The translations under genes and the position numbers were made by a program. Below the pieces are notes generated by a model. That model was not told the origin of the DNA and did not search any database. It was given only the letters and a program-made list of their open reading frames with translations. Positions 6,551 through 55,516 of a DNA stretch of 64,000 bases are shown piece after piece. Every line of letters starts with the position of its first letter. Positions within the stretch are counted from its first letter, which is position 1. This stretch comes from a virus (lineage: Duplodnaviria > Heunggongvirae > Uroviricota > Caudoviricetes): positions 22,818 to 86,817 of the IMG/VR virus record IMGVR_UViG_3300013126_000015; one strand, 5' to 3'.

Positions 6551-7306
6551 ATGTTCGTATCAAAATTGTTAATCAGTGTTGGCGCAACAGCGGCATATTT
6601 CACATTGCGTGAAACATTTTTAGGACATAATGATCGGGTAATGTCGTTCCATCATTTTAACCTTAGTCAAGACGCAGATGTTGCATTCGAAAAAGCATTA
6701 GCATACAGCCATAACAATGGCATAGAGTTGGTAACTGACCGGGAAACAATGATAACTGAAATGCGTGAAATTCAACGGTCTAGTGCTGAACAATTAGCCG
6801 AACGTAAAGCCAAAATTGAAAGTGCTGATGCAGAACATCAAGCATACTTGAAAAAAGCGCATGATGAAAAAATAGAATTGATCGAGCAAGGTTTATATCC
6901 TTTTGGTCAATATTATAATAAACCTTTTGCTAGTGCTGCGGTGTCATACCTGCAATGGTTAATCAACACCGATTTTACTGATTGCAATGATGTTATCAAA
7001 TTATTGCAAATTAAAGTAACAGAGCAATGCAAACACCTTTTGCCGAATCCTGATGCTACTATTGGTACAGTTGGCAAACGTGAAACATTCAACGTTAAAA
7101 TTACCCGTTTAATACGGTGTGAAGGTTTCTATGGTGTATCCTATATCTGCACCATGGTAACACCTGACAATGTTGTCATGGTATCTAAAGGTGCGTTTGC
7201 TGCCGATGTTGGTGATACCCTTACCATCAAAGCAACTGTTAAGGAATATAGTCGATACAATGGTCAAATGCAAACCGTTATCCAACGTGTTGCAATAGTG
7301 AAATAA
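6551..7306 (+). CDS. hypothetical protein (251 aa)
   Basis: ATG with AGGT SD. Confidence 0.5.
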   Translation: MFVSKLLISVGATAAYFTLRETFLGHNDRVMSFHHFNLSQDADVAFEKALAYSHNNGIELVTDRETMITEMREIQRSSAEQLAERKAKIESADAEHQAYLKKAHDEKIELIEQGLYPFGQYYNKPFASAAVSYLQWLINTDFTDCNDVIKLLQIKVTEQCKHLLPNPDATIGTVGKRETFNVKITRLIRCEGFYGVSYICTMVTPDNVVMVSKGAFAADVGDTLTIKATVKEYSRYNGQMQTVIQRVAIVK

Positions 7307-7527
7307 GACAATCTGAAGCGATTGTAGCCTATCCTGTATCATGACTGCTATACTGGTGCAGGATAATGAATGGTCAGCCTTAAATCGAATTGTAGGGGGT
7401 TTTATGTTAAGCATCATACTAATGACAATTGTGATCATTGTCGCAATAACAATAAACATTATGGTTGACAAGTTAGCATAATCGTTTATAATATTATCTG
7501 TAATTTAACCAACACGGGAATAAGATC

Positions 7528-7704
7528 ATGACCACTCAATATAATACAATGTCAGATGATGAACTGGACACCATGGGCAATGGTAATGATAATCATATCA
7601 TTGACCTTGGGGATGATGATGACGATAATGATTACTATTCAGATGATAGTGATAGTGACATTGTATTCGCGAATGATTACTTCGAATGTGATAACGATTT
7701 CTAA
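7528..7704 (+). CDS. small highly acidic protein (58 aa, D-rich)
   Basis: unlisted ORF; followed by hairpin terminator. Confidence 0.35.
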   Translation: MTTQYNTMSDDELDTMGNGNDNHIIDLGDDDDDNDYYSDDSDSDIVFANDYFECDNDF

Positions 7705-7713
7705 GTAGCATAG

Positions 7714-7749
7714 ATCATGCCATGTTATGATGTATAGCATGGCATGATT
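7714..7749 (+). terminator. rho-independent terminator-like hairpin: 11-bp inverted repeat ATCATGCCATG-N14-CATGGCATGAT followed by T-rich tract
   Basis: read directly. Confidence 0.5.
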
Positions 7750-8030
7750 ATTATAAAATAATTTTAGATGCTTGGTATTATACTTGCATAAAATTATTTT
7801 TTTATTTTTTGAGAGCTTGGTGTATTATATTTAAAATAATACTTGCAAATTTTCAAACTACTTGCAAATTTTTCAAATAATTCTTTCCAAAAATAAATTC
7901 CAAAAATAAATTCTAAAATAACCCCCAAAATAAAACTTACCCCTGCCAGAAATGTCCTATACCAGAAAAATACCCCCCACCCTCAAAAATTGTCGAAGTA
8001 TATTTTTTGTATACATGCGGAAATTTAGTT
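7750..8030. repeat. non-coding AT-rich region with direct repeats (GCTTGGT..TATTATA x2; TACTTGCA(A/T)A x3; CCAAAAATAAATT x2) and C-rich G-poor tract
   Basis: read directly; lies between convergent genes. Confidence 0.6.
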
Positions 8031-8414
8031 TTATGTAAATGCCACTTTAAATATATTTTCAGCTAGTATAGATTTGATTATTTGATTAAAATTTTGTTCA
8101 GAGAAAGTAAAATCAAAGGTACGATTATTAAATGTTGCGTTTATTCTAGGATGATTATTAATAAAATAAATTTGCCAGCGAATATAAAATGAATATCTTT
8201 TTCCCATACTAGATGGATTAGAATAGAACTCATAGTTATGACTAATGCTACCATGTTCTGCATTGCAGGCAAATAGTACTAAATTATTACTTGATAATAA
8301 ATTATTCATATTGGCTAGTAATTCATCCATTTTATTATCGATTAGTAATTGAATGTTGGTAGAGTCTTTATTGGCTTTAGAAATTAAATATTCATTCATT
8401 GAGTTGGTTAGCAT
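8031..8414 (-). CDS. hypothetical protein (127 aa)
   Basis: ATG ORF; extended -10 TGCTATAAT at 8450-8458 upstream. Confidence 0.45.
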   Translation of the reverse strand: MLTNSMNEYLISKANKDSTNIQLLIDNKMDELLANMNNLLSSNNLVLFACNAEHGSISHNYEFYSNPSSMGKRYSFYIRWQIYFINNHPRINATFNNRTFDFTFSEQNFNQIIKSILAENIFKVAFT

Positions 8415-8449
8415 ATTGAATTACTCCGTTTTGTTTAAGGTATGATGTT

Positions 8450-8458
8450 ATTATAGCA
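8450..8458 (-). promoter_or_regulatory. extended -10 element TGCTATAAT for gene 8031..8414
   Basis: read directly on minus strand. Confidence 0.4.
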
Positions 8459-8574
8459 AGGTATCAGTCTAATGACAAGTAGTAAAATCATCCTGGAAAA
8501 TAGAAAAGGTAAAAAAGTATAAGTACCCGATAAAAAAATTATCGAGCTATATTTTTTGTATACATACGGAAAAT

Positions 8575-9159
8575 TTATTTATAGGTAAACAAACTACTGA
8601 AATAATTATCTTCTTTTTGTGGTGTTGAGAATGAGTAATCATACTCTAATCCATCTGCACAAACGATATTAATAAATTTAGTAGTATTTGATTTTAATTT
8701 GAACATTGCGATCAACCCTTTTTTGGAACGATGTGATCTTGAAAGTTCCATGATACCAAAATCTTTATTGCCGCTTTTTTTATAGATAATGATATCATCA
8801 TCATTAACCATATATAATCGTTTAATGGTTTCGATACAGTTATCGAACATTAGGTCAACGCCATAAATGGTTGATAGTGCGGTTTCATAATCTATCCCAT
8901 TTTCCATTTTCTTTATTAATATTTCAGATAGGAATTGACCATCACCGCATGTTGGATCGAGGAATGTTTTTTTAGGATTGGTGAATAGTTCAAGAGGTAA
9001 TTGATTTAGCATTTCTTGAACTAATTTAGTAGGGGTAAAAACTTCACCGGTAGATTTTATTCTAGTTTTTTCACGTTCGACACCTGACATATAATCACGA
9101 TTTCTAGCATGGTCTATGATATTGTTTAACATTGTCTTATCCATGTTTATTGAGTTCAT
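8575..9159 (-). CDS. N6-adenine methyltransferase-like protein, short paralog (motif X FTP + motif I DPTCGDGQFL, no NPPY)
   Basis: SAM-binding motif I; N-terminus paralogous to 9196..10377. Confidence 0.5.
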   Translation of the reverse strand: MNSINMDKTMLNNIIDHARNRDYMSGVEREKTRIKSTGEVFTPTKLVQEMLNQLPLELFTNPKKTFLDPTCGDGQFLSEILIKKMENGIDYETALSTIYGVDLMFDNCIETIKRLYMVNDDDIIIYKKSGNKDFGIMELSRSHRSKKGLIAMFKLKSNTTKFINIVCADGLEYDYSFSTPQKEDNYFSSLFTYK

Positions 9160-9165
9160 GATTAA

Positions 9166-9194
9166 AGTATATCAGGTATTTTATTGATTGTCAA
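9166..9194 (-). promoter_or_regulatory. sigma70-type promoter (minus strand TTGACA 9194-9189, TATACT 9171-9166)
   Basis: 17-nt spacer. Confidence 0.5.
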
Positions 9195-9195
9195 T

Positions 9196-10377
9196 TTATT
9201 TTACAGTTGATTCGATATAATCAATTTCTTTTTGTGTTAAGTTAAAGTGTTGGTAAAGTTCTTCATCAGTCCATGATTTTGTTAAATCAATATCAGGAAT
9301 TTGTTCAAATAATGATTTTGAGTTCGGGGTATTTGTTTTAACCGATTTAATCAATGTTTTAATGGTATTGGTTTCCAGATATTGTTTTAAATTTATAGAT
9401 TCAATTTCAGATGATGTTGTTAAGAACACTACAGAATACCCACCAACATGATTAACATCGGCAACCTTAACGGCACCAATATTATTAAATGCCCCCATGT
9501 TTGGCAACACCACTTTAAATAATCCCTTTCCAGTTATTTCATTACCAACTGTAATAATACTAGTATTATATTTTTCACCTTGTTTACCAACTCCTGTTAT
9601 AAAAACATCCCCAGTTGTTTGTTCATTAACTTTATTAAGGTTTAATTTGCCGCGCAACCATCTAGTACCTAAATTTTTTGTGGTGTCAAATTTTGTAATA
9701 AATTTAGTTTGAGTATTATTTTCAGATAATATCATTGAATCTGTTAAATTAAATAGTTCTGTGTTGTGGTTAATATCGGTGACCTTGCAATCATCATTGT
9801 CATTTTTTGTCAACAAAAAATGACAAGTTCTCATATTTACGTTGAACCACTTATCACCATGAAAGACTAAATTATTTAATTTAGCGTCATATAAAAATTT
9901 TTTCAATTTTGAAGGTGATGGTCCAGTCCATGCAGATGGTATGACCAATGAAACGATGTTATTAGATAGTTCTACTGATTTATATACAAATTCTGCGGCT
10001 AAATCAATGCTATTAGTTGAATTTCCTTCTTTTCCTTGATAAGGTGGGTTACCTAATACGACATCGAATTTCATGTTAATATCTCCTAAATCTTTAATTA
10101 CGTTCAACCCAATTTTATGAGCGACTACATCTTTAGCAAGGTTGTCTACATATATATGTATTCTGCTTGCTGGTATATTATAATTATACACCAAACTAAT
10201 GGCAAATTCAAGATTAAATAACACTAAAATTGAATTTTTATTTGGAAGGGATGGGATTTGCTCAATCATTTCATTGACTAATTCCAATGGTGTAAAGATT
10301 TCATGAGAACCGGCAAACATGCCTGCTTCTAATTGGATCTTATAACCACGAAACATATCTTCAACTCTAGTGCTCAT
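9196..10377 (-). CDS. gamma-class N6-adenine DNA methyltransferase-like (DVVLGNPPYQ motif IV, FTP motif X)
   Basis: NPPY catalytic motif; motif I degenerate (no glycines). Confidence 0.6.
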   Translation of the reverse strand: MSTRVEDMFRGYKIQLEAGMFAGSHEIFTPLELVNEMIEQIPSLPNKNSILVLFNLEFAISLVYNYNIPASRIHIYVDNLAKDVVAHKIGLNVIKDLGDINMKFDVVLGNPPYQGKEGNSTNSIDLAAEFVYKSVELSNNIVSLVIPSAWTGPSPSKLKKFLYDAKLNNLVFHGDKWFNVNMRTCHFLLTKNDNDDCKVTDINHNTELFNLTDSMILSENNTQTKFITKFDTTKNLGTRWLRGKLNLNKVNEQTTGDVFITGVGKQGEKYNTSIITVGNEITGKGLFKVVLPNMGAFNNIGAVKVADVNHVGGYSVVFLTTSSEIESINLKQYLETNTIKTLIKSVKTNTPNSKSLFEQIPDIDLTKSWTDEELYQHFNLTQKEIDYIESTVK

Positions 10378-20880: not shown

Positions 20881-22325
20881 AATGCTTCCTGTTCCTTATT
20901 TTTTATAACCAGTGCAATGGTGTTTAATGATATTTCTGGTGTCATTAATGCGTCATATGCCATTTTTCGTTTTTCAACAGGAACTTCGGTATCTATTGAA
21001 AAATACATATCAACTAATATTTTTCTAATTTCTTGTTCTGATAGACCATTAGTATTGATATTTTTAGATTGTAATAGATCCAATGCCCCTTTATTCTCAA
21101 ATTTAAATTTGATGGTATTAGTCATATATTTTAGATTTCTATGATCTTTTTCATATGCTATATTACAGATTTCTTCTGTTCTAAATTCAGTAGGAATTAA
21201 TCCCAAGAATTCTGTTGGCGATTTAATATTTGTTGCAAATTGAAGATATAGGTTATAATCTTTTAATTCGTCTGGAATATAATGTAATGGATTATTTTCT
21301 CTATATACTATCACAAATGGTTTTGTTAAATGTTCTAGCCATTTTCTATATTTAAGTCTGTTTATATCAGGCGTAATTTCAGATTGAGGTATATATTCCC
21401 ATACATCTGGGTTATTATGGGAAATGTCTTTATAAAAATCCAATGACTTTCCATGTATGGCTTTTAACGCTGGTGCAAAATTTTTCACTCCTATTCTTAA
21501 TATAGGATCAGGAATATCATTGATAACATCAGGGTTATATCTGAATAAGCTCATTATATATATTGCACAATATCCATTTTCTTTCGTTAGCATTAATGCT
21601 TTTTCAATTTGTCTATCACGATTTTTTATATTGTTATGCATATTAGCATTATCTAAAAAACTCATTGCACTTTTATACTTTTCTTTTGAGCTGCTAATAT
21701 CTGTTAAGTGTTTATTAATGATAGTTTGCTTAATTTGTTGAGCAGATAGTTTAGTAGCAGCAGTGAATTGTTGCTCTGACATTGAGTTATCTTGTTGATC
21801 AAATATTTCAATTTGTTCAATATCCTGATGAATGGCTAATGCCCACATAGTAGAAGATGGCCACGTAGTAGAAGATGCCATATCATTAGTGGGCTTTTTC
21901 TGTAAGCAGTATACCAATATTACACTTCTATCATAAAAGTATTCTTCAAAATAACTTTGTGTTGGTTTTGTTGTACACCAGCTTGACTCTTTACCATGAA
22001 AACATGATGCATCTTTATCTAATGGTATTACTATCAACCATTCATCATTTTCTTCTAAAGTAATGGATTGTCCTTTAGCTTTCTTACGTTTTATGTTTGT
22101 TTTGGTTTGTCCAGGATCAAATTCATCGACAAATGATTTAAATTCATCAAATGGCTGTTTACCCCAATAATCAATATTTTTTTGATTAATATCGGTTATT
22201 TGTTTTTTATCTACTAACTGTTTAAATTTGTTAATATACTGAGTAACTATAGTTTCATCATTTTTTTGTGAAAACTTTGATTTTACTTCTTTATATCCTT
22301 CTAATATAAATTCTTTTGCTCTCAT
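20877..22325 (-). CDS. putative internal protein with CTS (MRAKEFILE), 482 aa
   Basis: N-terminal 9 aa and upstream DNA conserved with 20245 and 15181 genes. Confidence 0.45.
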   Translation of the reverse strand: MRAKEFILEGYKEVKSKFSQKNDETIVTQYINKFKQLVDKKQITDINQKNIDYWGKQPFDEFKSFVDEFDPGQTKTNIKRKKAKGQSITLEENDEWLIVIPLDKDASCFHGKESSWCTTKPTQSYFEEYFYDRSVILVYCLQKKPTNDMASSTTWPSSTMWALAIHQDIEQIEIFDQQDNSMSEQQFTAATKLSAQQIKQTIINKHLTDISSSKEKYKSAMSFLDNANMHNNIKNRDRQIEKALMLTKENGYCAIYIMSLFRYNPDVINDIPDPILRIGVKNFAPALKAIHGKSLDFYKDISHNNPDVWEYIPQSEITPDINRLKYRKWLEHLTKPFVIVYRENNPLHYIPDELKDYNLYLQFATNIKSPTEFLGLIPTEFRTEEICNIAYEKDHRNLKYMTNTIKFKFENKGALDLLQSKNINTNGLSEQEIRKILVDMYFSIDTEVPVEKRKMAYDALMTPEISLNTIALVIKNKEQEAL

Positions 22326-23020
22326 TATTTTTCAAACCTTGTGGTAATTGGGTCAATTAATACTGCTTGCCCATTTTTTCTTCTCATGATATTATTAAAG
22401 TGCATATCAGGTTCAAATTGATTATTTCTGAATAATGGCTCTAATATTCTTAATGCTTGGGAAAATTGTTTATTTGTAGTTGAATGTCGAATTTTATTTC
22501 TGGTATTATCATCAAAAAATGCTTTCGAAAATTTAACATGGGCTGGGAATTTTCCACTAGGATCAGTCGAGTTGACAATATCCATTATTCCTAGATTATT
22601 ACACAATAATTCTACACCATTATTTGGATAGTCAAATAATCGTTCCATTACAATTAATAATTGATATTTTGCCTTTGATTGTTCTGGTTCCAAAAAGAAA
22701 TCATGTTGTTGTTCAAACCATTCCATATCATCATATGAAAATTTACTTATATCATATAATTTGAATTTAAGGATTTTTGGAAAGAATTGGTTTTCTGGAT
22801 GATTATGGCATACTCTTAAAAATTGATATGCTGGATCTGATGGACCACTTATTGCAACAAATTTAAGGATGATATTCGGGTTATTTTGAACAGCATATGC
22901 TATAGCTTGAATTCCATTTCCAAGATATGATAATTGTGGTTTATTAATTACACCAGATAATGGTTTTTTTGATGTGGGTATTTCTATTTTCTTTTCTAAG
23001 ATGAGTTCATGAATTTTCAT
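22325..23020 (-). CDS. kinase-like paralog with CTS-like N-terminus (MKIHELILE); degenerate catalytic motif
   Basis: C-terminus ...NGQAVLIDP paralogous to 23024 gene. Confidence 0.4.
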   Translation of the reverse strand: MKIHELILEKKIEIPTSKKPLSGVINKPQLSYLGNGIQAIAYAVQNNPNIILKFVAISGPSDPAYQFLRVCHNHPENQFFPKILKFKLYDISKFSYDDMEWFEQQHDFFLEPEQSKAKYQLLIVMERLFDYPNNGVELLCNNLGIMDIVNSTDPSGKFPAHVKFSKAFFDDNTRNKIRHSTTNKQFSQALRILEPLFRNNQFEPDMHFNNIMRRKNGQAVLIDPITTRFEK

Positions 23021-23023
23021 ATA

Positions 23024-23650
23024 TTAAACCATTGGGTCGATAACAACAAGGTCGCCATTTTCACGTTGCATAATGTTTCCGCGATGTAGGTCTAACACAT
23101 GGGATGGATATGTATTCATCAAGTCAACCATTAATTCAAATATTTTTGGATAATCATGGCGTAATGTTTGGATTCTGGACGGATCATTGTTCATAAACCA
23201 TTCTATATCACTTTTATCACCTATCGATGATATGATGCCAACTAACGAATTGTATTGGTCATTGCGCGAAATTCTATGTAATTTTTCAATTCTAACAACA
23301 AAAGTATTGTCGTTGATTTTAATGATATTGCCCTTAAACTTTGGAATTAAAGGATTATTTTGATGTTGTCTTGCATATTGTATGTAATCAAAATACGCTT
23401 TATCATGTGTGAATATTTTGAACACCCATGGGTAGTTAGGATGTTCAAATGCTGTTCCACCTTGCCCCGGTGAACCAACAGCATTAAATCCATTATCTAC
23501 CATATACTTTTGAAATTGTATTAATCGAGATATTCTATTATTAACCCCAGACAAATCCCCATGGAAAATTTCTTGGGATTTTTTGTAATGGTCGTTTTGT
23601 TTGTATCCAGTAAGTTCACGAATATGCATCTTGTATTTATGCTTATTCAT
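23024..23650 (-). CDS. protein kinase-like fold protein (APH/ChoK-like HxDLHRGNI ... VVIDP)
   Basis: catalytic-loop-like DLHRGNIM and IDP motif. Confidence 0.4.
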   Translation of the reverse strand: MNKHKYKMHIRELTGYKQNDHYKKSQEIFHGDLSGVNNRISRLIQFQKYMVDNGFNAVGSPGQGGTAFEHPNYPWVFKIFTHDKAYFDYIQYARQHQNNPLIPKFKGNIIKINDNTFVVRIEKLHRISRNDQYNSLVGIISSIGDKSDIEWFMNNDPSRIQTLRHDYPKIFELMVDLMNTYPSHVLDLHRGNIMQRENGDLVVIDPMV

Positions 23651-25064: not shown

Positions 25065-25121
25065 TAGGATTCTCCGTGACTGATATATTATTATATCATA
25101 TCACGGAGACAATGCAACTAA

Positions 25122-27626
25122 TTATTTACCGTTATCAACGATAATACTTGTTGAATATGTGATACCACCTAAAACATAACCTTTAGTTGAATCAGCATCA
25201 AAACCAATTCCGAAAGATTTAGCGGTACCTTTCCAAGATATTTTAGCACAATCAAGGACGGTTACCTGTTTAGTACCAATTGTAACAACATTACCATTTA
25301 CCGCAGTGATCTTAGCATGAATATCACTTGCTGATTTAGCACCAGCTGGTGTTACACAACTTCCAGCAGGAACTGGGGTTGGTGCTAATGTAGGCACTGG
25401 GGTGCTAGTTGGTGCAGCAGTTGGGACCGGTGTAGCAGTAGGTGCAACTGTTGGTACAGGTGTTGAAGTAGGAATTGCTGTTGGCACTGGAGTGCTAGTA
25501 GGCAATGGGGTACTTGTAGGTACAGCTGTAGGCACCGGTGTAGCTGTAGGAGCAACAGTTGGAACCGGAGTAGCAGTTGCAACGACTGGAGCTGGATCTA
25601 ACGTAATAGTAGTGGCTTCACAGAATACACCAGTTTGATCTTTAACACCAGCATATGTTGCTAATGATCCAGCAGCAAACGTACCTGTCCCGCCAACTAC
25701 GACACCAGTATAATGGACCATTGCGTTTGCCGTAGTAAATGCAGGGTTTGCACCTCTTAATTGAGTGAAACCGGTAATCGGTTCTTGAACACCAGAACAC
25801 GCAGGAGTATTAATAGTCAAATCCAATGTTTCAGATGCAGCAGTTCCAGCAGAATCGGTCAAATCAAATTGAATCGGATAAACACCACTGGTTCCTTGTG
25901 TACCATTAGTATTATCTGGAGCGGCTGGTGTGCCGTACAATTGAATACCATCAAATAACAAACCATTTGGAAGTGGTAAACTAACTGCATTAATAGCAAT
26001 GGTATAAGGAGCGATGCCACCAGTTACACTAATCGGTGTATTAGGCATTGCAACACCTTCAGTCAACACTGGAAGACCTAGAGTAGTAAATGCTAATGCT
26101 GGAACAGGAACAACTACTGGAGCTGGTTGACCATTAGCTAACAATACTTGAACTGTATAAGCTTTAGTAGAAACATTACCATCAGTATCAGTTACATTGA
26201 TAGAAAAGTCATATTTACCAGGAACAGTTGGAGTACCTTCAACAATACCACTATCCAACCCAACAGTCAACCCATCAGGAACTTGACCAGTTGTAGTGAT
26301 TTTATATGGAGAATTACCACCATAAACTGTAGATAATGGAGCCATTTTAGTGTTAACTTTAATATCAGCAATTGCTTCAGCTTGAGTCAATGGCATAACG
26401 TCATTGAAACCAACCATGTTTTCAGAGATAAAGTCACCTACAACAACTACAGCAGAACAATCATAAGAATAACTATCACCTTGCGTATCAGTAATAGTTA
26501 CTGCATTTAATGATGCCGCACCATGTTTACCATCTGGACCAACAGTATCACACATTTGTTCATGTGTTTCACCATCAAATGACCCAGTTGTAGCTGAACC
26601 AGTTGCAGCATTTACGCCAGATGTTAGAGCAGGATCACCATTACCAAATCTGAAGTAGGTATATTTGCGAGTAATAACTTCATCATTAGCTACTTTTTCA
26701 GCAGCACCTACATGTTCTTCTTTAGGTTGTGGTTTACAGACTTTTGGATCTGGATCAACGCAAGCTTTAGCTTTAGGTGGCTTTTGAATCAAATACCATT
26801 CAGATTCAACTTGATTAGGTTCACCATTTTGCCAATCAGGAAGACCATCACCATTTTTATCTTCATTAACTAATGCTTTAACCAATTGGTCAGCACCACC
26901 AGCAACTTTTTTACCATGTACTGACGTTTTTTCAACTCTCAACCAAACAGGTTCACCCCATTGAGCAGGAGCTGGTTCAACTTTTTCTTTAGGAGCTTGC
27001 TGAACAGGGACTACGTTAACTACCGCAGGTTGAAGAGGAATCGGTTGAGCTGGGGCTGGTTGTACTGGAGGTGGAGCTACGAACGTTGGAATTGCCATAG
27101 TAACACCAGGAGCAGATCCACCCAAACTAGCACCACGAACAAGACCAGAGCCTTGTTGATTCAACCAATAAAATCCAACGGATTTAGGAGTACCCATTGC
27201 ACCAGTTGCGAAATGTTCACATCCTGTATCAGCAGCAGATACACAAGAATGTCCACCGGTTGACCATGTTGAAGTGTCTGCAGCAATCGTACCACGAGGA
27301 CGAACACCATTTGCATCAGGTTTCAACTCGTAATGTACGATAGCATGAATTACACCAGCAGCATCAGTATATTCACCCACAGTTGGTGCACCATAACGTG
27401 CTGAATACCATGTATAGCCAATTTGAGCAGAATGCAAACCTTCAAAGTCTTGCTCAAAACCGTATGCCATTTGACCTGTATCATTCGCGACATCAAAGTT
27501 ACCAACAGATACGGCTTGTGCACCAATACCTACACCACATTTACCAAATCCATCACATATAGTGAATGCTTCTGCAGTCGTAATAAAAAATCCCAATAAT
27601 GCCGGGATGTACTTAATATATTTCAT
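25122..27626 (-). CDS. secreted protein with signal peptide, Ig-like (He_PIG-type) domains and ~70-aa Pro/Thr-rich linker; track start 27638, ATG 27626 preferred
   Basis: MKYIKYIPALLGFFITTAEA signal; TPVPT repeats; GGAGA SD before ATG 27626; GC-richer codon usage. Confidence 0.55.
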   Translation of the reverse strand: MKYIKYIPALLGFFITTAEAFTICDGFGKCGVGIGAQAVSVGNFDVANDTGQMAYGFEQDFEGLHSAQIGYTWYSARYGAPTVGEYTDAAGVIHAIVHYELKPDANGVRPRGTIAADTSTWSTGGHSCVSAADTGCEHFATGAMGTPKSVGFYWLNQQGSGLVRGASLGGSAPGVTMAIPTFVAPPPVQPAPAQPIPLQPAVVNVVPVQQAPKEKVEPAPAQWGEPVWLRVEKTSVHGKKVAGGADQLVKALVNEDKNGDGLPDWQNGEPNQVESEWYLIQKPPKAKACVDPDPKVCKPQPKEEHVGAAEKVANDEVITRKYTYFRFGNGDPALTSGVNAATGSATTGSFDGETHEQMCDTVGPDGKHGAASLNAVTITDTQGDSYSYDCSAVVVVGDFISENMVGFNDVMPLTQAEAIADIKVNTKMAPLSTVYGGNSPYKITTTGQVPDGLTVGLDSGIVEGTPTVPGKYDFSINVTDTDGNVSTKAYTVQVLLANGQPAPVVVPVPALAFTTLGLPVLTEGVAMPNTPISVTGGIAPYTIAINAVSLPLPNGLLFDGIQLYGTPAAPDNTNGTQGTSGVYPIQFDLTDSAGTAASETLDLTINTPACSGVQEPITGFTQLRGANPAFTTANAMVHYTGVVVGGTGTFAAGSLATYAGVKDQTGVFCEATTITLDPAPVVATATPVPTVAPTATPVPTAVPTSTPLPTSTPVPTAIPTSTPVPTVAPTATPVPTAAPTSTPVPTLAPTPVPAGSCVTPAGAKSASDIHAKITAVNGNVVTIGTKQVTVLDCAKISWKGTAKSFGIGFDADSTKGYVLGGITYSTSIIVDNGK

Positions 27627-27736
27627 TAATTTCTCCATAAAAATTTAAATTGTCAGCGTCAATATTATCAGACACTAATATATATTTATGGTAATGCTAC
27701 CATAAATTCTGTGTGTTATATCAAAGATTTATAATT

Positions 27737-28162: not shown

Positions 28163-28407
28163 GATTTTACTCCAAATTTTTCTCTAATTTCAAAACAAAA
28201 TTGATGTGGTGGGGACATTTCAGACAAACCATTTTCTGTTTGTATTTTAGATGTTTCCACGATGGTTTTAATACATTCTTCAATGATCATTGAAGAAAAT
28301 ATATTTAAAAATTGAGTATCATCATCTAATGCACCCCATATAGGATCACCGTATCCATCGAAATTAAGTCCGGCAGTTTTAGCAATTTCTTTAATTTTCT
28401 CGTTCAT
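28156..28407 (-). CDS. hypothetical protein (83 aa)
   Basis: ORF. Confidence 0.45.
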   Translation of the reverse strand: MNEKIKEIAKTAGLNFDGYGDPIWGALDDDTQFLNIFSSMIIEECIKTIVETSKIQTENGLSEMSPPHQFCFEIREKFGVKSC

Positions 28408-28687
28408 TTATGTTACACAATTGGTTGAAAGTTGGAATACATTTTTTACACTGCACCCCAACTTGTAATATTTCTCTTATTTGTTCAATTGGGGTGCCAG
28501 TTATCAATAATTTTATTATATCACGATCTGATACCTTTTTGCAAACACAAATTATCATTTTTTCAACTTATTGATCGCTTCAATGATATAAATGCCAGTG
28601 AAAGATATGTATCCTGCGACATAATATAGTACATCATTCGTAAAAAATAGATTAATAATAGCAATAGCAGTTAAGAAGTATAACATA

Positions 28688-29821: not shown

Positions 29822-31282
29822 CTATGCTCTAGCTCGTGATTTTACTTCGTCCCACGACTGCCGGTATTCTCTAAACCCGTCTTTGTACCACAATCTCCAT
29901 CCAGCCGCTGGAGTCAAAAAATTAAAGATATTTCCTTCTGATATAGCGTCATATACTTCAATGTCACCATTTTCATTCTCTCTGCAGCGAACTAATCCTT
30001 TTAATGATTTTTTTCCAGAATCAGTAATAGGATCTTTAATAGTAGCAACCCATTTTCCATATCTAAAATTTGCAGTTGATTTGAAACTGAAACCAAAATC
30101 ATCACGCGAACCAAAATGGGTGATACCTGCTCCAGAACCTAAGCAAAAGTTGTCCATAGCAAAGCCAGCATCAACCCACCCTTGACAAATTTCTCGAACT
30201 GTATTTACTTTTACACCATCTCCCTGTATTACACCAGTTGATGGGTGTAATACCTTGTACCCTTTATTATTAATAGTTACCCCAAAGGTAGCTTCCCAAT
30301 CTTTGCCTACTAATCCTGGTTCGATTGTCATATCTCCGGTATCTGGTCTAGCAATCATGCGCCCACCAGATGCCAAAATTCTATCTTTTAATCTAGTACC
30401 AAGATATTCTCTCACAAATCTTCTTGAATCATATGTATCAATCACTGCTGACATAAATGGTAAACCAATGCCGCGTTTATGTCTTTCCACTGCCTCAAAT
30501 AATCTATCTACTACCATAACAGCTGCACCGAAATCATCTTTATTTTCCGCATCTGAATGAGCACATGATACACTATGTTCACTCGCTTCAATAGATGAAG
30601 TTGATGGTTTATATGTTCCATACAAGCGTTTAATATACCCATTTGCTCTAATACAGTCTGACCCATCAAATAGTGCGGCATGTGCAATACCAGAGATTAC
30701 TGCTGCTTCATCTGGACTATCAGCACTTCTGTCGCCAAACTCATGCATCATGTAGTTAACATTGGTGGTGTCAGTTCCGGTAAGTTCACAGAATTCTATA
30801 AGAGTCAACCTCATTGCTCTGCAAACAGATGCAACAGTAGACATTTTCCAAATCAATGCTTGTGAAAATGTTTCAAAATAGGTTACTAACCACGCAAAAT
30901 TAGACACAGTATTAATAATACCAACTATTGGCGTTTGTGGTGCAACTATTCGGCCTTCTTCTACTCCATAAATTGCTAATGGTATTTTTCCATCAAGTTC
31001 TCGTACAATACGTTCCCATCCTTCTCTATTGAAGTGGTATCCTTGTTCAGTAACTTCAACTTCTGCTTCATCAATCATTTCCATTGTGATTCTAGTAGCT
31101 GCAAAAATTGAAGATAATAGGGTAATACCCATTGAAACAATATGGGTAGAATATGAACTTGACTTTCGTGGAACCATATTTGCATAACCATATTCGTCGC
31201 CAGTAGGTGCTTCTAGCCAGTGATTAATTTTATACCCATCTGCACACAAAATTATATTAAATGGTTTTAAATGTTCTAACAT
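29822..31282 (-). CDS. nadV: nicotinamide phosphoribosyltransferase
   Basis: full-length NAMPT-like translation; GAGGA SD. Confidence 0.75.
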   Translation of the reverse strand: MLEHLKPFNIILCADGYKINHWLEAPTGDEYGYANMVPRKSSSYSTHIVSMGITLLSSIFAATRITMEMIDEAEVEVTEQGYHFNREGWERIVRELDGKIPLAIYGVEEGRIVAPQTPIVGIINTVSNFAWLVTYFETFSQALIWKMSTVASVCRAMRLTLIEFCELTGTDTTNVNYMMHEFGDRSADSPDEAAVISGIAHAALFDGSDCIRANGYIKRLYGTYKPSTSSIEASEHSVSCAHSDAENKDDFGAAVMVVDRLFEAVERHKRGIGLPFMSAVIDTYDSRRFVREYLGTRLKDRILASGGRMIARPDTGDMTIEPGLVGKDWEATFGVTINNKGYKVLHPSTGVIQGDGVKVNTVREICQGWVDAGFAMDNFCLGSGAGITHFGSRDDFGFSFKSTANFRYGKWVATIKDPITDSGKKSLKGLVRCRENENGDIEVYDAISEGNIFNFLTPAAGWRLWYKDGFREYRQSWDEVKSRARA

Positions 31283-31376
31283 AATGAAATCCTCATTGTT
31301 TTTATAAAAATTGGTGGAAGGTCTATCCCTCCACCATAAAATTATATTATATCATAATAATATAATTAGTCAACTA

Positions 31377-32618
31377 TTATTTACCTTTTAGTGCACTTGC
31401 CAATTGACCGAACCAATCTGAAATCTTATCAGATGAAATCATCCATTGTGGGAGTGCTGGCAGTTTACCATCCCATTTTTTATACGGTTCCGCTTGTGCT
31501 ACCATGATAGAGGTTTCAGCTTCATAGCGATCAGCTTTTAATGTTTCTAATCGGTTGACAGAAGAATCTCTTGCATATTGGCTTACTACTAAATCGGTAA
31601 TACTCTTTTGTAAAGATGGGTCCAGTCTCATATCAGATGAAATCCCAATATACTCAATGGTGATTCCCATTTTTTTGTATTCGGTGATCATTTGTTTTTC
31701 AACTGACTGCAAAATTTCACTTTTCTTTGCCAGCATTTCCTTGAATGGGAACTTAGCAAATTCAGAAAAATAGGCAGACTTGATTCGAGCATGTACCCTA
31801 GTGTTCATTACATTATTGAGTGATTTGCCTTGCAAAACAGATGGGAAATTTCGTTCATCGTCCGTCCCACCGGTTGCTGCTTCAACACCAAACCAATAAA
31901 GGTATTTTGCTGCATCTTCTTCTAGAACATTTGCACCAATTGATACATCAAAGCATGCTGAAATAGAATCTTCTGATTCAACACACACTTCTTGGTTAGT
32001 AGGTGATTCTGGTGTATTGGTTTTAGTCCAGTTAACAACATATGGAGTCCGATCTAGTAATACTAAAATTGCACCCGGAACATAATAATCAATTGCACCT
32101 GAGTTTTTCAAAACAACGTGTGGAATTTGGATACGTTTTGCACCAACTTTTTTGTCATTCAAAAATGCTTCTGATTCAAATTGTTTCTGGCTATCTTTTG
32201 TTTCACCGGTTGCTGGGATCAAGAATGCAGAATGGTTAGGGAGAACGTTTACATTTTCAGCCCAATCTTGTCTTGAATAATATGCGTTAGCATCTTTGAC
32301 TACAAAATTGGTCACCAAGACCATCATTCCTAGTACAACCAATGTTTTGGATGATTTATCAAATAATGATTTAATATTGTTCCACCATAGCCCAATTATG
32401 GCAAGCAATAGCACCCCAGATGATAGACCACCGGACATGCTTTTAAAAAATTCCATTCCGGTCATGCTTTTTGCATAACTAGCGATGCTATCATCAAATT
32501 GACTTACCGCAATAGCACCAGCTTCTGCAGTACCAACCGCAGCAGTATAGATACCCAAATACTTCCATCCAGTAATGGCAAGTAGTGTCAAACAAAGTTT
32601 AAAAATTATAGTCTTCAT
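31377..32618 (-). CDS. SPFH/band-7 (prohibitin-like) membrane protein
   Basis: N-terminal TM segments; C-terminal A/E-rich SPFH-like region. Confidence 0.4.
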   Translation of the reverse strand: MKTIIFKLCLTLLAITGWKYLGIYTAAVGTAEAGAIAVSQFDDSIASYAKSMTGMEFFKSMSGGLSSGVLLLAIIGLWWNNIKSLFDKSSKTLVVLGMMVLVTNFVVKDANAYYSRQDWAENVNVLPNHSAFLIPATGETKDSQKQFESEAFLNDKKVGAKRIQIPHVVLKNSGAIDYYVPGAILVLLDRTPYVVNWTKTNTPESPTNQEVCVESEDSISACFDVSIGANVLEEDAAKYLYWFGVEAATGGTDDERNFPSVLQGKSLNNVMNTRVHARIKSAYFSEFAKFPFKEMLAKKSEILQSVEKQMITEYKKMGITIEYIGISSDMRLDPSLQKSITDLVVSQYARDSSVNRLETLKADRYEAETSIMVAQAEPYKKWDGKLPALPQWMISSDKISDWFGQLASALKGK

Positions 32619-32684
32619 TGTTTACCTTATGTTATATTAAAAAATTGTGTTACACCGTAAGTATAGCATGTTTATAAAAAAGTG

Positions 32685-33050
32685 TCAATAGTCTCTATCA
32701 AAATAGTGTTTAAAACATGCTTCATCTTTATAATGTTCCTTTACATAATCGATGTACTCCGGTGGTGGTTTTATGATACCTATTTTACCATTTGCAGGAT
32801 CATATACAACCCATCGTTCTCCAGTTTTTAATGGGTACGGTTGTTTATTCAAGAATAATAGGAATGCCTTGTGTTTTGCGAATTCTTCTAATTCTTGATA
32901 TATAGTTGGATGATTTGCATAGTTTTTTGGATTTTTTTGAATCCAATTTATACAGTTTACTAAATGTCCAATAGCCATATCTTTTATCAATGTTGCTCTA
33001 CCGTCTGCTGAACCCCATTGTATATTACCTATTTCTTCAATACTTTTCAT
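32685..33050 (-). CDS. hypothetical protein (121 aa); start trimmed to ATG 33050 (GGTGA SD)
   Basis: ORF between nadV and natV. Confidence 0.4.
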   Translation of the reverse strand: MKSIEEIGNIQWGSADGRATLIKDMAIGHLVNCINWIQKNPKNYANHPTIYQELEEFAKHKAFLLFLNKQPYPLKTGERWVVYDPANGKIGIIKPPPEYIDYVKEHYKDEACFKHYFDRDY

Positions 33051-33054
33051 TTTA

Positions 33055-34089
33055 TCACCTGCATATTGAAACACCCCAAGTAATTATCGAAAGATGGTCC
33101 TCGAACAAATATTCCTCCATATCTAATACATCATCAATTGGAAACCACTTGGCAAATCTAGCATCATCAGATCCTTTAACTTTAGACAACGGTCCAGATG
33201 GTAATTCTATTGCATAAGCATGTGTGATAGTTCGTCCTCGCAATGATCGTGACGGTTTATCGAACACCTGCGTTCCTTTTATAGAACCTCTTAATACTGG
33301 CTCTGGTATTTTGATTTTAGTTTCTTCCCTTAACTCTCTTATAACACCATCAATCAAATATTCGGACTGGTTTACAAATCCCCCAGGAAGTGCCCATAAT
33401 CCTTTTCCAGGACTCGCTTTACGTTGCACCAATAGGACATGACCTGATTGAATCACAACAGCGTCAGTGGTCACAAAAGTGGGTGGGTATGGAGCATTGT
33501 CCCAGGATTTTTTATAACCTTGAATATGATTAAACTCATCAACCAGATTTTTATAATCATCACTTTTTGTCCACTCTCTTAAATCGTTCTGCAGTTGGGA
33601 ATCAATTAACGGTCTATCTTTCCAATTAAATATTGCTCCAGTAAATAATTGTTCCCGGACAGTGGTTGCATCAATATCAATGATATGATCGGTATTAATA
33701 AAATCCCATTGTGGGAAATAATCAATATAATAGGAAGTAGAATCTTTTTTGCAGCCCACGATACCAATTTTTGGATCGGTAATGCCACATGTTTCTTTTT
33801 TGACTATTCGTTGAACTTGTTGAATCCACTCTTGATCAACTCGGAAATCACGGATACCATGACAACTAATTCTGGATGAATCTTGTTTTGGTAGTTGATT
33901 CAGTAACATTGCAGCACGTTCATACCACTTCCACGGGTTTTTAATCGTTCGTGGTTGAAAGCTGGAGCCGAATAATACTATTACTTTATTTGAACGTTCT
34001 AATGCTGTAGTTACATTATGAACATGTGCGTGAGTTGGTGGTTGCATTCTGCCAATGTATACAATGGCATCATATTTTTGTTTTGTCAT
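33055..34089 (-). CDS. natV: bifunctional NMN adenylyltransferase / Nudix ADP-ribose pyrophosphatase
   Basis: N-terminal HxxH nucleotidyltransferase motif (PPTHAHVH) plus Nudix box (GGFVNQSEYLIDGVIRELREETK). Confidence 0.7.
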   Translation of the reverse strand: MTKQKYDAIVYIGRMQPPTHAHVHNVTTALERSNKVIVLFGSSFQPRTIKNPWKWYERAAMLLNQLPKQDSSRISCHGIRDFRVDQEWIQQVQRIVKKETCGITDPKIGIVGCKKDSTSYYIDYFPQWDFINTDHIIDIDATTVREQLFTGAIFNWKDRPLIDSQLQNDLREWTKSDDYKNLVDEFNHIQGYKKSWDNAPYPPTFVTTDAVVIQSGHVLLVQRKASPGKGLWALPGGFVNQSEYLIDGVIRELREETKIKIPEPVLRGSIKGTQVFDKPSRSLRGRTITHAYAIELPSGPLSKVKGSDDARFAKWFPIDDVLDMEEYLFEDHLSIITWGVSICR

Positions 34090-45527: not shown

Positions 45528-45968
45528 CTATTCTATGGTAACAGCAGATGAACCAGCTTTTTTTAGATTTTCTAATTCCATTTTAAGACGTTCGATTTCT
45601 AAACTATACAACGATGTACAATCCAATCTATCAGGTTCTTCACCCAATGGGACAACAATTCTAGCATAAACACCAATGTCTCCACCTGTACCAGAATTGG
45701 TGGAGTTTTGCTGTGTCCCATTATAATAATTATTGACTATGTTTGGTTGGGAACTATTCATACTATTAGTATTTTGTGTCCCAGTAACCCCAAAATCTAA
45801 AGTTGGACCTAAGTGTGTTCCTTGAGTACATGTAGTACCATCACGCGCACGTACAGAATCTCCACCAATGGAGTTTTGCGGAGTGGTCGGTAACACCATT
45901 ATTGCTGATACCGACTGGCAATATAGCAATAATATTATTGAGTAACTTTTGTGGTTATTGAAGAACAT
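45528..45968 (-). CDS. secreted protein with signal peptide (146 aa), Gly/Thr/Asn-rich
   Basis: hydrophobic N-terminus; GC-richer codons. Confidence 0.4.
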   Translation of the reverse strand: MFFNNHKSYSIILLLYCQSVSAIMVLPTTPQNSIGGDSVRARDGTTCTQGTHLGPTLDFGVTGTQNTNSMNSSQPNIVNNYYNGTQQNSTNSGTGGDIGVYARIVVPLGEEPDRLDCTSLYSLEIERLKMELENLKKAGSSAVTIE

Positions 45969-46318
45969 GTACGTAATCTCATTGATTGGGAATCTTTAAG
46001 TACTGCACATATATAATAATGGGCATCTTCCTTGACTACAATATCAACTGGAATTATTCGTTCTTGTTCTTTGCCAAGTGCAAATTCGGTAATAATTTTA
46101 TCTTCATTTTTTTGAAGATCTATAGCTTTTACAAATTCTATATTAGCATTTTCAAAATGCCCATATATTTTAAATTGTATAGCTGATTTTGTACCTACTG
46201 CACCAGCTGCAGTTACTTTATTAGGAAATATGCTGACTGCATTGGCAGATGACATGGAGAATAATAATGCGATTATAATAGATATTTTTTTCATAGTGGT
46301 CCTTATTGAGGGGTCCAA
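45935..46318 (-). CDS. secreted periplasmic protein (signal MKKISIIIALLFSMSSANA), possible pilus-chaperone-like N-domain
   Basis: signal peptide; beta-rich. Confidence 0.35.
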   Translation of the reverse strand: MDPSIRTTMKKISIIIALLFSMSSANAVSIFPNKVTAAGAVGTKSAIQFKIYGHFENANIEFVKAIDLQKNEDKIITEFALGKEQERIIPVDIVVKEDAHYYICAVLKDSQSMRLRTCSSITTKVTQ

Positions 46319-47563: not shown

Positions 47564-47592
47564 TTGCCAAACGTGATAAATACACGTAGTAA
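47564..47592 (+). promoter_or_regulatory. sigma70-type promoter (TTGCCA 47564-47569, 17 nt, TAGTAA 47587-47592)
   Basis: read directly. Confidence 0.4.
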
Positions 47593-47608
47593 ATTAAGGA
47601 ATCTTATT

Positions 47609-55330: not shown

Positions 55331-55516
55331 TTAATCTCTGTCACGGTGCTCATGATGGTGATGTCGGTTATGATGCTGATTATGATGGTATTGGTATTGT
55401 GGATAATACCTTGGGTAATATACAGGTTGAACTGGGTAATAATAGCTGTCGTATCCACGGTAATTGTGGGCACATCCAACTAAAAATAATAACGATAATA
55501 CTAATAATTTATTCAT
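55331..55516 (-). CDS. His/Tyr/Pro-rich lipoprotein (61 aa; lipobox LVGC)
   Basis: MNKLLVLSLLFLVGCA then YYYPVQPVYYPRYYP...HHNRHHHHEH. Confidence 0.5.
   Translation of the reverse strand: MNKLLVLSLLFLVGCAHNYRGYDSYYYPVQPVYYPRYYPQYQYHHNQHHNRHHHHEHRDRD

Follow-up and report, generated by a model that had tools for sequence, protein, structure and literature searches.

The stretch of viral DNA analyzed here, referred to as the window, spans 64,000 nucleotides, has a GC content of 32.6% and belongs to a parent contig of at least 102 kb. The list of open reading frames includes a minus-strand ORF at positions 25122..27638 (838 codons plus a stop), which is a real gene with homologues reaching E = 4.6e-207. 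The likely start is the second ATG (27626..27624, Met5), since a GGAG at 27636..27633 within ATGGAGAAATTAATG lies 8 nt ahead of it and the aligned homologues begin with MKF or MKY at the equivalent Met. Thus, the product is likely to comprise 834 aa, in agreement with the length of about 834 aa in an earlier note on this DNA. More than half of the ORF protein (53%) consists of T, A, G, V and P, and its 12 Cys residues fall into six local pairs.

The protein opens with a Sec-type signal peptide (residues 1 or 5 to 24, 27567..27638, minus strand, ending ...TTAEA|FT), assigned from hydropathy and an AxA site. In MKYIKYIPALLGFFITTAEA|F, a basic n-region containing K6 and K9 precedes a hydrophobic core (IPALLGFFITT, 9-residue Kyte-Doolittle mean of 2.44) and an AxA cleavage site (AEA|F). 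Signal peptides were called by a heuristic (n-region, h-region and small-x-small site) that yields a predicted cleavage position. By this measure the ORF protein has the features of a Sec and signal peptidase I substrate and 112 of 122 full-length family members carry an equivalent N-terminus, which bears out the clear Sec signal peptide of the earlier note. A metagenomic copy sharing 86% identity (L036) has a different yet equally signal-like peptide, with identity starting at residue 26, just past the cleavage site. The window copy is mosaic with this sequence, in which the signal peptide has been swapped for another and not lost. For signal peptidase II we took the lipobox to be the PROSITE-type pattern [LVI][ASTVI][GAS]C with Cys at +1. 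No such lipobox is present in the ORF protein, which has F-T-I-C with Ile at -1, while four relatives (P0001-P0004) have T-V-A-C, a sequence that would suit a permissive pattern, and lipidation of these relatives is conceivable.

The alignment places a clade-specific N-terminal insert at 27504..27566 (minus strand), a C-x5-C loop formed by C28 and C34. This insert, CNGxGxC or CDGFGKC, is present only in the window protein, P0001-P0004 and a homologue from IMG/VR (L031). The sister clade lacks it and has TVMYG at the mature end. The conserved N-terminal head (residues ~43-425, 26364..27512, minus strand) consists of β-sandwich A (43-185), a Pro-rich connector (186-228) and β-sandwich B (229-425), the last bearing an acidic loop, NEDKNGDGLPDW. 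Two Cys pairs, C132/C140 and C363/C394, are located in the head, and each is gained or lost as a pair across 128 sequences. The C28/C34 loop and the C132/C140 pair agree with the Cys-containing N-terminal domain described previously.

Two He_PIG domains follow on the same strand. He_PIG 1, a cadherin-like Ig domain (residues ~426-505, 26124..26363), was assigned from PF05345, AF2 and a match to SraP, and He_PIG 2 (residues ~517-612, 25803..26090) corresponds to a second PF05345 stretch above threshold. PF05345 scored 40 bits against a cut-off of 24 over the two stretches, the best being 426-498 (5.6e-10). AF2 predicted β-strands in He_PIG 1 (pLDDT 70-84) and a second β-rich block in He_PIG 2 (pLDDT 72-83), where a GGxAPY...LPxGL...GTP motif lines up with homologues. 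The full-length AF2 model, built from 15 sequences, was of poor quality (pLDDT 48.7), and only its He_PIG blocks were used. The earlier note had proposed several He_PIG Ig-like domains; the fold assignment holds, with the number reduced to two.

The C-terminal part of the protein comprises two related modules separated by a linker, all on the minus strand. M1 (residues 614-684, 25587..25799) contains the C614/C673 pair and is a distant repeat of M2 (residues 760-838, 25125..25361), which contains C761/C797. Jackhmmer connected the two segments, 614-684 and 760-838, with each other and with modules that occur in tandem in proteins of Methylovulum and Methylococcaceae. M2 is a divergent DUF5666-like domain ending in ...SIIVDNGK, without a membrane anchor. 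PF18914 (DUF5666) matches 12 of 18 aligned relatives (best 6.1e-10) and gives no match to the window M2 alone. The intervening Pro/Thr linker, made of (T/A/S)PVPT-like units, was delimited as residues 685-758 (74 residues, 25365..25586) or, by composition, as residues 681-758 (78 residues, 25365..25598; 58% P+T, with P24, T21, A13 and V12 of 78). The previous placement of a ~70-residue linker at 25385-25640 was roughly right. Its DNA is weakly repetitive, with a periodicity of 30/18/12, and the repeat number varies: two homologues from other viral contigs (L001 and L031) differ by 21 residues.

The ORF has a total GC of 0.418, whereas the window averages 0.327. The earlier note described a foreign-looking composition and a codon usage much GC-richer than that of the surrounding genes. 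A scan of GC3 and RSCU contradicted the statement on codon usage. GC3 of the ORF is 0.173, below the mean of 0.235 (sd 0.034) for the 29 other window genes, and its RSCU values correlate with those of the remaining window genes at 0.79, within the range seen for these genes (0.82±0.09). The surplus GC lies at codon positions 1 and 2 (GC1 of 0.564 and GC2 of 0.516, compared to 0.42 and 0.33 in other window genes), a consequence of the high A, G, P, T and V content of the protein. Thus, the compositional anomaly is an amino-acid effect, and the compositional argument for foreignness fails because the synonymous sites are fully phage-like. The same data bear on whether bacterial DNA was mis-joined to the phage contig, or whether the gene is a decaying recent insertion. 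Such an artefact would fit the total GC, which is above that of the flanks, and the closest named relative, which comes from a Methylobacter MAG. However, the synonymous-site measures (GC3 and RSCU) match those of the phage, the frame stays open over 838 codons in DNA of 33% GC, a separately assembled Logan sequence and a 102-kb JGI contig both show the same neighbours, and the copies in other phages are under purifying selection. We consider an artefact to be hardly credible.

The gene is co-oriented with a minus-strand gene run of more than 40 kb and its neighbours are non-structural: T7-like kinases, a nucleotidyltransferase, NAMPT and replication genes. The search for its own promoter returned 5 promoter-like sites, fewer than the 11.8 that chance predicts, and no terminator flanks the gene. 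The window also encodes a REC-GGDEF diguanylate cyclase, an outer-membrane-barrel-like protein and further signal-peptide proteins. Tblastn of the ORF protein found no match in 50,697 phage records, megablast of 12 kb around the gene gave no near match in deposited phages, and the proteins of this phage are singletons among 15 billion sequences. A search for host signals in the form of tRNA, CRISPR or pmoC sequences found none, and the window has no pmoC-like ORF.

We then compared copies of the gene in other phages. A second, unrelated AT-rich phage lineage carries it, represented by a 314-kb viral contig (L001) and the IMG/VR sequence L031. This gene is all that the window has in common with these two contigs; the flanks share nothing, and in both lineages the gene lies among non-structural genes. 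The dN/dS ratio between L001 and L031 is 0.044, and 0.022 for the head alone, showing that the gene is under strong purifying selection in the second lineage. Two further candidate phage contigs (L034 and L035), which carry distant relatives, were left uncounted, since their GC of 46-47% and giant ORFs of 2000-2900 aa give them a bacterial look. The earlier description of the gene as a moron, at least a recent one, does not fit this selection, the lack of a promoter or terminator of its own, or the phage-like synonymous composition; a transcription unit of its own and a differing composition, which define a moron in the strict sense, were both absent. Since the GC content reflects an amino-acid effect, GC3 or RSCU should be checked before a gene is called a moron.

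These surroundings also bear on whether the protein is a virion component, a Hoc-like decoration or fibre whose hydrophobic N-terminus is not a working signal peptide. Phage capsids and tails often carry Ig-like domains, and weak BFVD matches to tip attachment protein J and tail fibres were obtained, all with E>=0.009 and TM<0.2. T4 Hoc is likewise a phage gene product with Ig-like β-sandwich domains, although the window protein differs from it in having a signal peptide, disulfide pairs and a non-structural neighbourhood, and in that its Ig domains are not the conserved part. Hoc-type proteins are not known to carry signal peptides, and their genes lie in the structural module. A signal peptide conserved in kind, and substituted by another in L036, six Cys pairs which, with their covariation, imply an oxidising compartment, the non-structural surroundings in both phage lineages, the lack of any homologue among the deposited phage genomes and bacterial relatives that are all secreted make a virion role very improbable.

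Next, we examined the family and its origin. We found 19 close homologues of the ORF protein, and a profile of the head matched 883 clusters (at least 883 at 50% identity), mostly bacterial. The nearest relatives are in Methylococcales: of 23 genome loci, 15 have a title naming Methylococcales or a methanotroph genus. Among these 15 are the closest loci and the cultured Methylomonas and Methylocucumis, and Methylovulum also carries a family member. In its wider extent, the family is common among the non-methanotrophic Planctomycetes, Verrucomicrobia and Hydrogenedentes. All bacterial relatives are secreted proteins, and the phage copies form one clade nested inside Methylococcales diversity. 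An ultimate horizontal origin from bacteria is therefore likely, which upholds the earlier proposal of horizontal acquisition on the different ground of the homologue search. The gene was acquired long ago and its codon usage has adapted to the phage. The closest 'bacterial' copies are themselves compositionally foreign within their own contigs. Transfer from phage to bacterium was considered for the Methylobacter copy and softened, as its codon usage also fits low-GC Methylococcaceae (r 0.84). Apparent NUDIX and Band_7 kinship between the window and the neighbours of the Methylobacter copy amounted to generic NUDIX similarity and was treated as coincidence. Homologue taxonomy and codon similarity suggest that the host is most likely a Methylococcales methanotroph.

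The Methylococcales paralogues share the head (31-47% identity) and the He_PIG stalk with the window protein, but end in a C-terminal dockerin, whereas the window protein continues into M1, the Pro/Thr linker and the DUF5666-like M2. Downstream of the paralogues we found a protein with a signal peptide, a cohesin domain (1.2e-9) and a VPLPA-type hydrophobic and basic tail. The PEP-CTERM-like tails of the bacterial neighbours show the motif, with NCBIfam scores below threshold, and one such neighbour gave a weak match to the flocculation protein PepA. These dockerins, cohesins and PEP-CTERM-like anchors indicate surface display of the host paralogues; a literature search found no paper linking cohesin-dockerin pairs to aerobic methanotrophs. 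Unlike these loci, the window encodes no cohesin homologue, no PEP-CTERM-like tail was present in the ORF protein or any window ORF, and Pfam gave no Dockerin_1 match in the ORF protein. Thus, of the cell-surface assignment made earlier, the part concerning the host paralogues, which are wired for display, stands, and the corresponding partners are missing for the window protein itself. The export signals and disulfide covariation are properties of the sequences, while a location beyond the periplasm is a prediction, and in a Gram-negative host a surface location needs a secretion step past Sec.

Comparison of family members indicates that the ~400-aa N-terminal head, and not the Ig domains, is the family-defining conserved part. 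The He_PIG domains form a spacer of about 190 residues; they resemble the cadherin-like modules of SraP (PDB 4m03, profile match 2.2e-15), but differ from He_PIG adhesins such as SraP in this spacer role. The window protein matches a ~380-position head profile (A2/A3), built in this analysis, over its full length. Invariant columns are Y103, T127, H130, E141, H142, F143, W158, T238, W269, E278, Q285, T323, R324, D355, G401 and M408, all of which the window protein keeps. H59 and H241 are nearly invariant, the sole exception in the window protein being H59, which is Tyr in this protein and its four closest relatives (the phage-type clade). The number of invariant polar residues is unusually large (N47, D49, N52, H130, E141, H142, E278, Q285, R324 and D355), and such a set would be no less expected of an enzyme or metal centre than of a passive binder.

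The head is an all-β double sandwich in the predicted model (pTM 0.80). It gave no match in Pfam or PDB sequences, including searches of the PDB with head profiles; Pfam at E<=10 on 13 head sequences returned scattered noise only, and Foldseek with the head model against the PDB and BFVD found nothing at E<=0.001. The best structural neighbours were binding modules (YcnI, cohesins and pilin or MSCRAMM Ig folds), with no enzyme folds among them.

The head could nevertheless belong to a secreted enzyme, a new catalytic module acting on exopolysaccharide or another envelope polymer and exported to loosen or modify the matrix around infected cells and ease progeny release or dispersal. The invariant polar and charged residues (Y103, H130, E141, H142, E278, Q285, R324 and D355) and the strong constraint on the head are consistent with catalysis, as are the dockerins of the family, which are found on cellulosomal enzymes, and the PEP-CTERM-like-tailed neighbours with their single weak PepA match, which suggest exopolymer biology. 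Against this, sequence searches of Pfam, NCBIfam and the PDB gave no enzyme-family match, and known phage depolymerases are usually virion-borne β-helices. We regard a secreted enzyme as possible, though unlikely.

YcnI binds copper through a monohistidine brace formed by the His that becomes N-terminal after cleavage, with Glu and Trp ligands (PDB 7me6, PMC8424229). A copper auxiliary gene can be imagined by analogy with pmoC-carrying phages: the head would bind copper in the periplasm or at the surface and thus sustain the Cu supply to particulate methane monooxygenase in infection. The invariant H130 and H142, the nearly invariant H59 and H241 and the acidic residues would provide ligands, the nearest homologues come from copper-dependent methanotrophs, and large methanotroph phages are known to carry host metabolic genes (PMC7674155). 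However, the similarity to YcnI/DUF1775 is at fold level only: the head is three times larger, comprises two sandwiches and shows no DUF1775 sequence match, and the defining His (PMC8424229) is missing from the mature end, which is F/T/S here. In addition, the phage-type clade has Tyr in place of H59, copCD, pmoD and mbn were not seen as conserved neighbours, and the wider family is common in non-methanotrophs. A copper function therefore seems improbable.

We compared the gene to other phage systems. Lambda Bor and Lom, T5 Llp, phi80 Cor and P22 SieA are phage-encoded exported envelope proteins that act as morons or superinfection-exclusion factors, and are small lipoproteins or outer-membrane proteins. 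The window protein resembles them in being phage-encoded, with a Sec signal, a predicted action on the envelope of the infected cell and a probable host origin. It differs as an 834-aa modular β-sandwich protein with no lipobox, no evident promoter or terminator of its own and a synonymous-site composition indistinguishable from that of the phage. The pmoC-phages are large phages of freshwater methanotrophs, with genomes of 159-527 kb and 32-44% GC (Chen et al. 2020, PMC7674155), and the paper describing them makes no mention of secreted or signal-peptide proteins. The window phage is similarly large and AT-rich, with genes common to gammaproteobacterial methanotrophs, but no pmoC-like ORF is present in the window, and there is no near DNA match in deposited phages.

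Taken together, our verdict is of a host-family, exported, non-virion protein, because of the conserved signal peptide, the six Cys pairs and the non-structural neighbours; on the same evidence the earlier view of a protein made in the infected cell, as opposed to a Hoc-like virion decoration, is supported. We propose, with a probability of about 0.55, that it is a Sec-exported, disulfide-stabilised all-β protein of the infected cell which acts on the envelope or exopolymer matrix and is not in the virion. The double β-sandwich of ~400 aa would be the functional head, with the two He_PIG domains and the Pro/Thr linker forming a stalk, and the two C-terminal DUF5666-like modules would replace the dockerin by which host paralogues dock onto cohesin proteins with PEP-CTERM-like tails. 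Regarding ligand and benefit to the phage, we infer that the invariant polar residues form a pocket in the head, a probable binding site for a cation and/or surface polymer, and that the phage supplies the infected cell with a phage-encoded variant of a host protein of the surface or matrix. This would most likely serve to alter what the cell surface presents or adheres to, whether by shielding the surface from further adsorption or through a change in attachment and aggregation. An adhesin role is plausible, and the conserved head could equally be catalytic or metal-binding.

A broader and more speculative scheme, which we consider doubtful, is that the phage reprograms methanotroph surface and aggregation with the head as a new cation-dependent binding or catalytic module, alongside other envelope-directed window genes (those for the diguanylate cyclase, the barrel-like protein and the signal-peptide proteins named above), and that the gene shuttles between phage and Methylococcales by module-swapping recombination. 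If true, such shuttling would make phages a vehicle for diversifying Methylococcales surface proteins.

The family is a sizeable, unannotated extracellular domain family that phages have adopted and kept under selection, and the window gene illustrates that the 'foreign GC' of a phage gene can be a pure amino-acid effect. The gene gives a concrete host link, to Methylococcales methanotrophs, for an otherwise unplaceable large phage, and these methanotrophs control methane efflux from lakes. The ligand or activity of the head, if found, would reveal what large phages must change on the methanotroph surface during infection.

The open frame of the secreted protein spans 25122..27638 on the minus strand (838 codons, used here for residue numbering), with ATGGAGAAATTAATG as its start region. 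The second ATG (27626) is preceded by GGAG at 8 nt, and all full-length homologues, whose N-termini read MKFxK... or MKYLKY..., start at the equivalent Met. Thus, the product is probably of 834 aa, the length given in the earlier note. The N-terminus, MKYIKYIPALLGFFITTAEA followed by FT, has the tripartite layout of a Sec signal peptide. Of the 122 family members with a complete N-terminus, 112 have a signal peptide when judged by the same simple criteria. The 12 cysteines form six local pairs (28/34, 132/140, 293/301, 363/394, 614/673 and 761/797). Two stem-loops, neither followed by a T-run, lie beside the gene: a perfect 10-bp stem with a 4-nt loop about 50 nt upstream (27684..27707), and a 9-bp stem with a 21-nt AT-rich loop (25071..25109) between the stop codon and the next gene, the 3′ arm of which overlaps the GGAG of that gene.

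He_PIG was the sole Pfam family recognised in the protein (40 bits, cut-off 24), in two stretches. The Ig-like domains described previously are present, as two and not "several", and the rest of that physical description was essentially right. Two related modules of ~75 residues, M1 (residues 614-684) and the C-terminal M2 (residues 760-838), are separated by a Pro/Thr-rich linker (residues 681-758, 25365..25598 on the minus strand), in which 45 of 78 residues are Pro or Thr and the DNA-level periodicity is weak. DUF5666 was matched by 12 of 18 M2 relatives (best 6.1e-10), M2 of the window protein itself having no match.

Homologues numbered 19 in a large protein database, down to E = 4.6e-207. 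Their alignment places the conserved part in the first ~420 residues, not in the Ig domains, and this region had no match in Pfam, NCBIfam or PDB sequences. At 50% identity, a profile of this N-terminal head recovered 883 clusters with E<=1e-3, of which 199 had E<=1e-30. Family members are present in Planctomycetes, Verrucomicrobia, Lentisphaerae, Hydrogenedentes and others, usually with a head followed by He_PIG and then InlB-B-repeat or dockerin modules. The nearest relatives are far more restricted taxonomically than this wider family: 15 of 23 loci in species-representative genomes have titles that name Methylococcales or a methanotroph genus. The closest loci are among them, from Methylomonas sp. 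TEB, M. defluvii, Methylocucumis oryzae, Methylovulum and many Methylococcaceae MAGs. In cultured Methylovulum psychrotolerans and in several Methylomonas strains, a family gene is annotated just as "putative Ig domain-containing protein". We found no homologue in deposited phage genomes.

We clustered the ORFs around 30 homologous loci to find conserved neighbours. Directly downstream of the family gene, 10 Methylococcales loci have a conserved partner gene, whose ~205-aa product combines a signal peptide with a cohesin domain (Pfam 1.2e-9). Its tail (...VPLPAS, a hydrophobic helix and KK/RR) displays a VPLPA/PEP-CTERM-type sorting signal visible by eye, with NCBIfam matches below threshold. 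The family protein in the examined loci of this group ends with a dockerin (two DxDxDG-type loops, Pfam E 4.7e-5 to 4.9e-3). The resulting pair, a head, He_PIG and dockerin gene and then a gene for the signal peptide, cohesin and sorting-like tail, is found at 7048..10163 of locus L024, and also in L018, L019, L029, L014, L021, L022, L025 and L026. In a second group (L003-type), two further genes downstream of the family gene encode proteins with tails of this kind. The dockerins and the cohesin or sorting-tail partners indicate that the host versions are built for display on the cell surface or in the matrix; our literature search found no paper on non-cellulosomal cohesin-dockerin display in aerobic methanotrophs. 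A cytochrome b561 gene and a two-component system also recur near the family loci, upstream in several. The window protein showed no dockerin in a Pfam search, and none of the window genes codes for a cohesin or PEP-CTERM protein. We propose that the window protein would be the phage's own adaptation of a surface-display family of the host, attached by another kind of module.

AlphaFold2 with 128 sequences gave a confident all-beta model of residues 24-425 (pLDDT 79.9, pTM 0.80), predicted to consist of two sandwiches with a Pro-rich joining segment that packs as part of the unit. A Foldseek search of the model against PDB and BFVD gave no significant match. Twenty positions do not vary among the 128 sequences, H130, E141, H142, E278, Q285, R324 and D355 being some of them, and N47, D49, N52, D53, H59, E62, H241, D260, E280, E357 and E360 are nearly invariant; the window protein and the four relatives closest to it have Tyr in place of H59. 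Positions 132 and 140 are both Cys in 46 sequences and Phe/Gly in 82, and C363 and C394 occur at similar frequencies (50 and 46 of 128). This is the pattern expected of disulfides, which would indicate an oxidising, extracytoplasmic location. So many invariant polar residues suggest that the head has a defined pocket, either for binding or for catalysis. Among possible roles we rank the binding or masking of a surface first, as all structural neighbours of the head model appear to be binding modules and the architecture is one of head, stalk and anchor. An enzyme ranks second, favoured by the many invariant polar residues and by the dockerin precedent. A copper role ranks third: the window protein lacks the N-terminal His that defines YcnI (PMC8424229), and most family members are from non-methanotrophs.

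The codon usage of the gene had been described as much GC-richer than that of its neighbours, a claim that a GC and codon-usage scan contradicts. Total GC is 0.418 against 0.327 for the window, and GC1, GC2 and GC3 are 0.564, 0.516 and 0.173, compared with means of 0.42, 0.33 and 0.235 (sd 0.034) for 29 other long window ORFs. At synonymous sites the gene thus matches or exceeds the rest of the phage in AT-richness, and the GC excess stems from amino-acid composition, 53% of residues being T, A, G, V or P. RSCU correlates with the rest of the window at r 0.79 (0.82±0.09 for individual window genes) and with Methylomonas or Methylobacter-MAG flanking genes at r about 0. The gene is codon-adapted to this phage, its composition offers no evidence for recent acquisition, and the foreign composition, the main anomaly of the earlier note, is explained away. 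An assembly chimera is excluded both by the phage-like synonymous sites and by the gene order, which recurs unchanged in a 102-kb JGI contig and an independent Logan assembly. The eight window proteins that were looked up were all singletons or near-singletons among about 15 billion sequences, occurring only in one 102,445-bp JGI contig and one 75.6-kb Logan contig (SRR11049220); the phage has therefore been sampled essentially once.

A close relative, P0004 (52% identical to the window protein), is encoded on L001, a 314-kb VirSorter contig of 31%-GC DNA with densely packed small ORFs. The IMG/VR contig L031 is a ~91%-identical relative of this phage; dN/dS between the two copies is 0.044 (0.022 in the head), and their Pro/Thr linkers differ by three repeat units. 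The flanks of L001/L031 have no further gene in common with the window, which indicates that the gene is kept by two AT-rich phage lineages unrelated to each other. It sits among non-structural genes in each of them, its window neighbours being two T7 gp0.7-like kinases, an RlaP nucleotidyltransferase, a homing-endonuclease-like gene, NAMPT, an NMNAT-NUDIX protein, Band_7, helicases, DnaB and primase. That the protein is a virion component is unlikely; an exported, non-virion envelope or matrix protein is the best-supported reading, and its site of action would be the infected cell's envelope or matrix.

Within this neighbourhood, the kinases are tandem paralogues of 231 and 208 aa (22325..23650, minus strand; PHROG 15752), and a 55-aa BFD-like [2Fe-2S] ferredoxin (28391..28558, minus strand; CxC...CxxC, precomputed Pfam Fer2_BFD) lies ~750 nt upstream of the gene. 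The NAD-salvage pair of NAMPT and fused NMNAT-NUDIX protein (29822..34089, minus strand) encloses a Band_7/SPFH membrane protein gene (31377..32618), the NAMPT being 40-45% identical to those of jumbo phages. The window codes for at least four proteins with signal peptides: the protein studied here, a 119-aa exported protein (45935..46294, minus strand; MKKISIIIALLFSMSSANA followed by V), and two products of a three-gene plus-strand island (47564..49576) within a long minus-strand run. The latter, of 146 aa (48037..48477, plus strand) and 368 aa (48470..49576, plus strand; MIKILSVILCIISYNALA followed by V), had no Pfam or NCBIfam match; the larger ends ...NAVYFF, an outer-membrane beta-barrel signature. 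A 316-aa response-regulator receiver and GGDEF diguanylate cyclase (55509..56459, minus strand; Pfam 3.7e-24 and 9.6e-44) has an intact GGEEF motif; it is a phage-encoded c-di-GMP synthase and could push the host to matrix production or aggregation.

A neighbour-joining tree of the head places the window protein in a phage-type clade with its close relative P0001, L001/L031, the L002 copy from a Methylobacter MAG and one member of a tandem pair in L006; the sister clade consists of low-GC Methylococcaceae MAGs. In the alignment, an N-terminal C-x5-C insert sets the phage-type clade apart. The first Cys has a T-V-A-C context in four relatives, which could pass as a lipobox, and an F-T-I-C context in the window protein, which does not fit one. 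The bacterial members of the clade look foreign in their contigs, with GC3 of 0.28-0.30 within flanks of 47-51% GC, and adjoin IS91, integrase or DDE transposase genes. The tandem pair (L006 5285..10034, identical in L037, with transposase genes nearby) comprises a native-looking, Methylovulum-like copy with GC3 0.56 and a phage-type copy with GC3 0.28. By its codon usage, the L002 copy is compatible with the phage (r 0.73) as well as with low-GC Methylococcaceae (r 0.84), so the donor cannot be named. Another copy, L036, on a metagenomic contig of an SXG*-prefixed WGS series (SXGT01407171.1 2167..4463), shares 86% protein and 80.7% DNA identity with the window copy only from residue 26 to ~616 (dN/dS 0.17), and has an unrelated signal peptide and different, He_PIG-like C-terminal modules. 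Synonymous differences between the two are AT-biased on the phage side (105 vs 49). The limits of identity and the differing ends show recombination at domain boundaries; the gene is therefore a mosaic, and appears to be swapped in this way between these phages and bacteria.

The host is likely a Methylococcales methanotroph, as judged from homologue taxonomy, codon similarity (r 0.78 between phage and low-GC Methylococcaceae) and agreement with published large phages of methanotrophs, which have 32-44% GC (PMC7674155). The window contains no tRNA and no pmoC-like ORF.

Phage-encoded exported envelope proteins of host origin are already known as a kind. The protein described here would be a new, unusually large exported envelope protein, built on an uncharacterised domain family, and its remaining interest lies in the host link, the conserved, uncharacterised head and the apparent swapping of modules between phage and bacterium.
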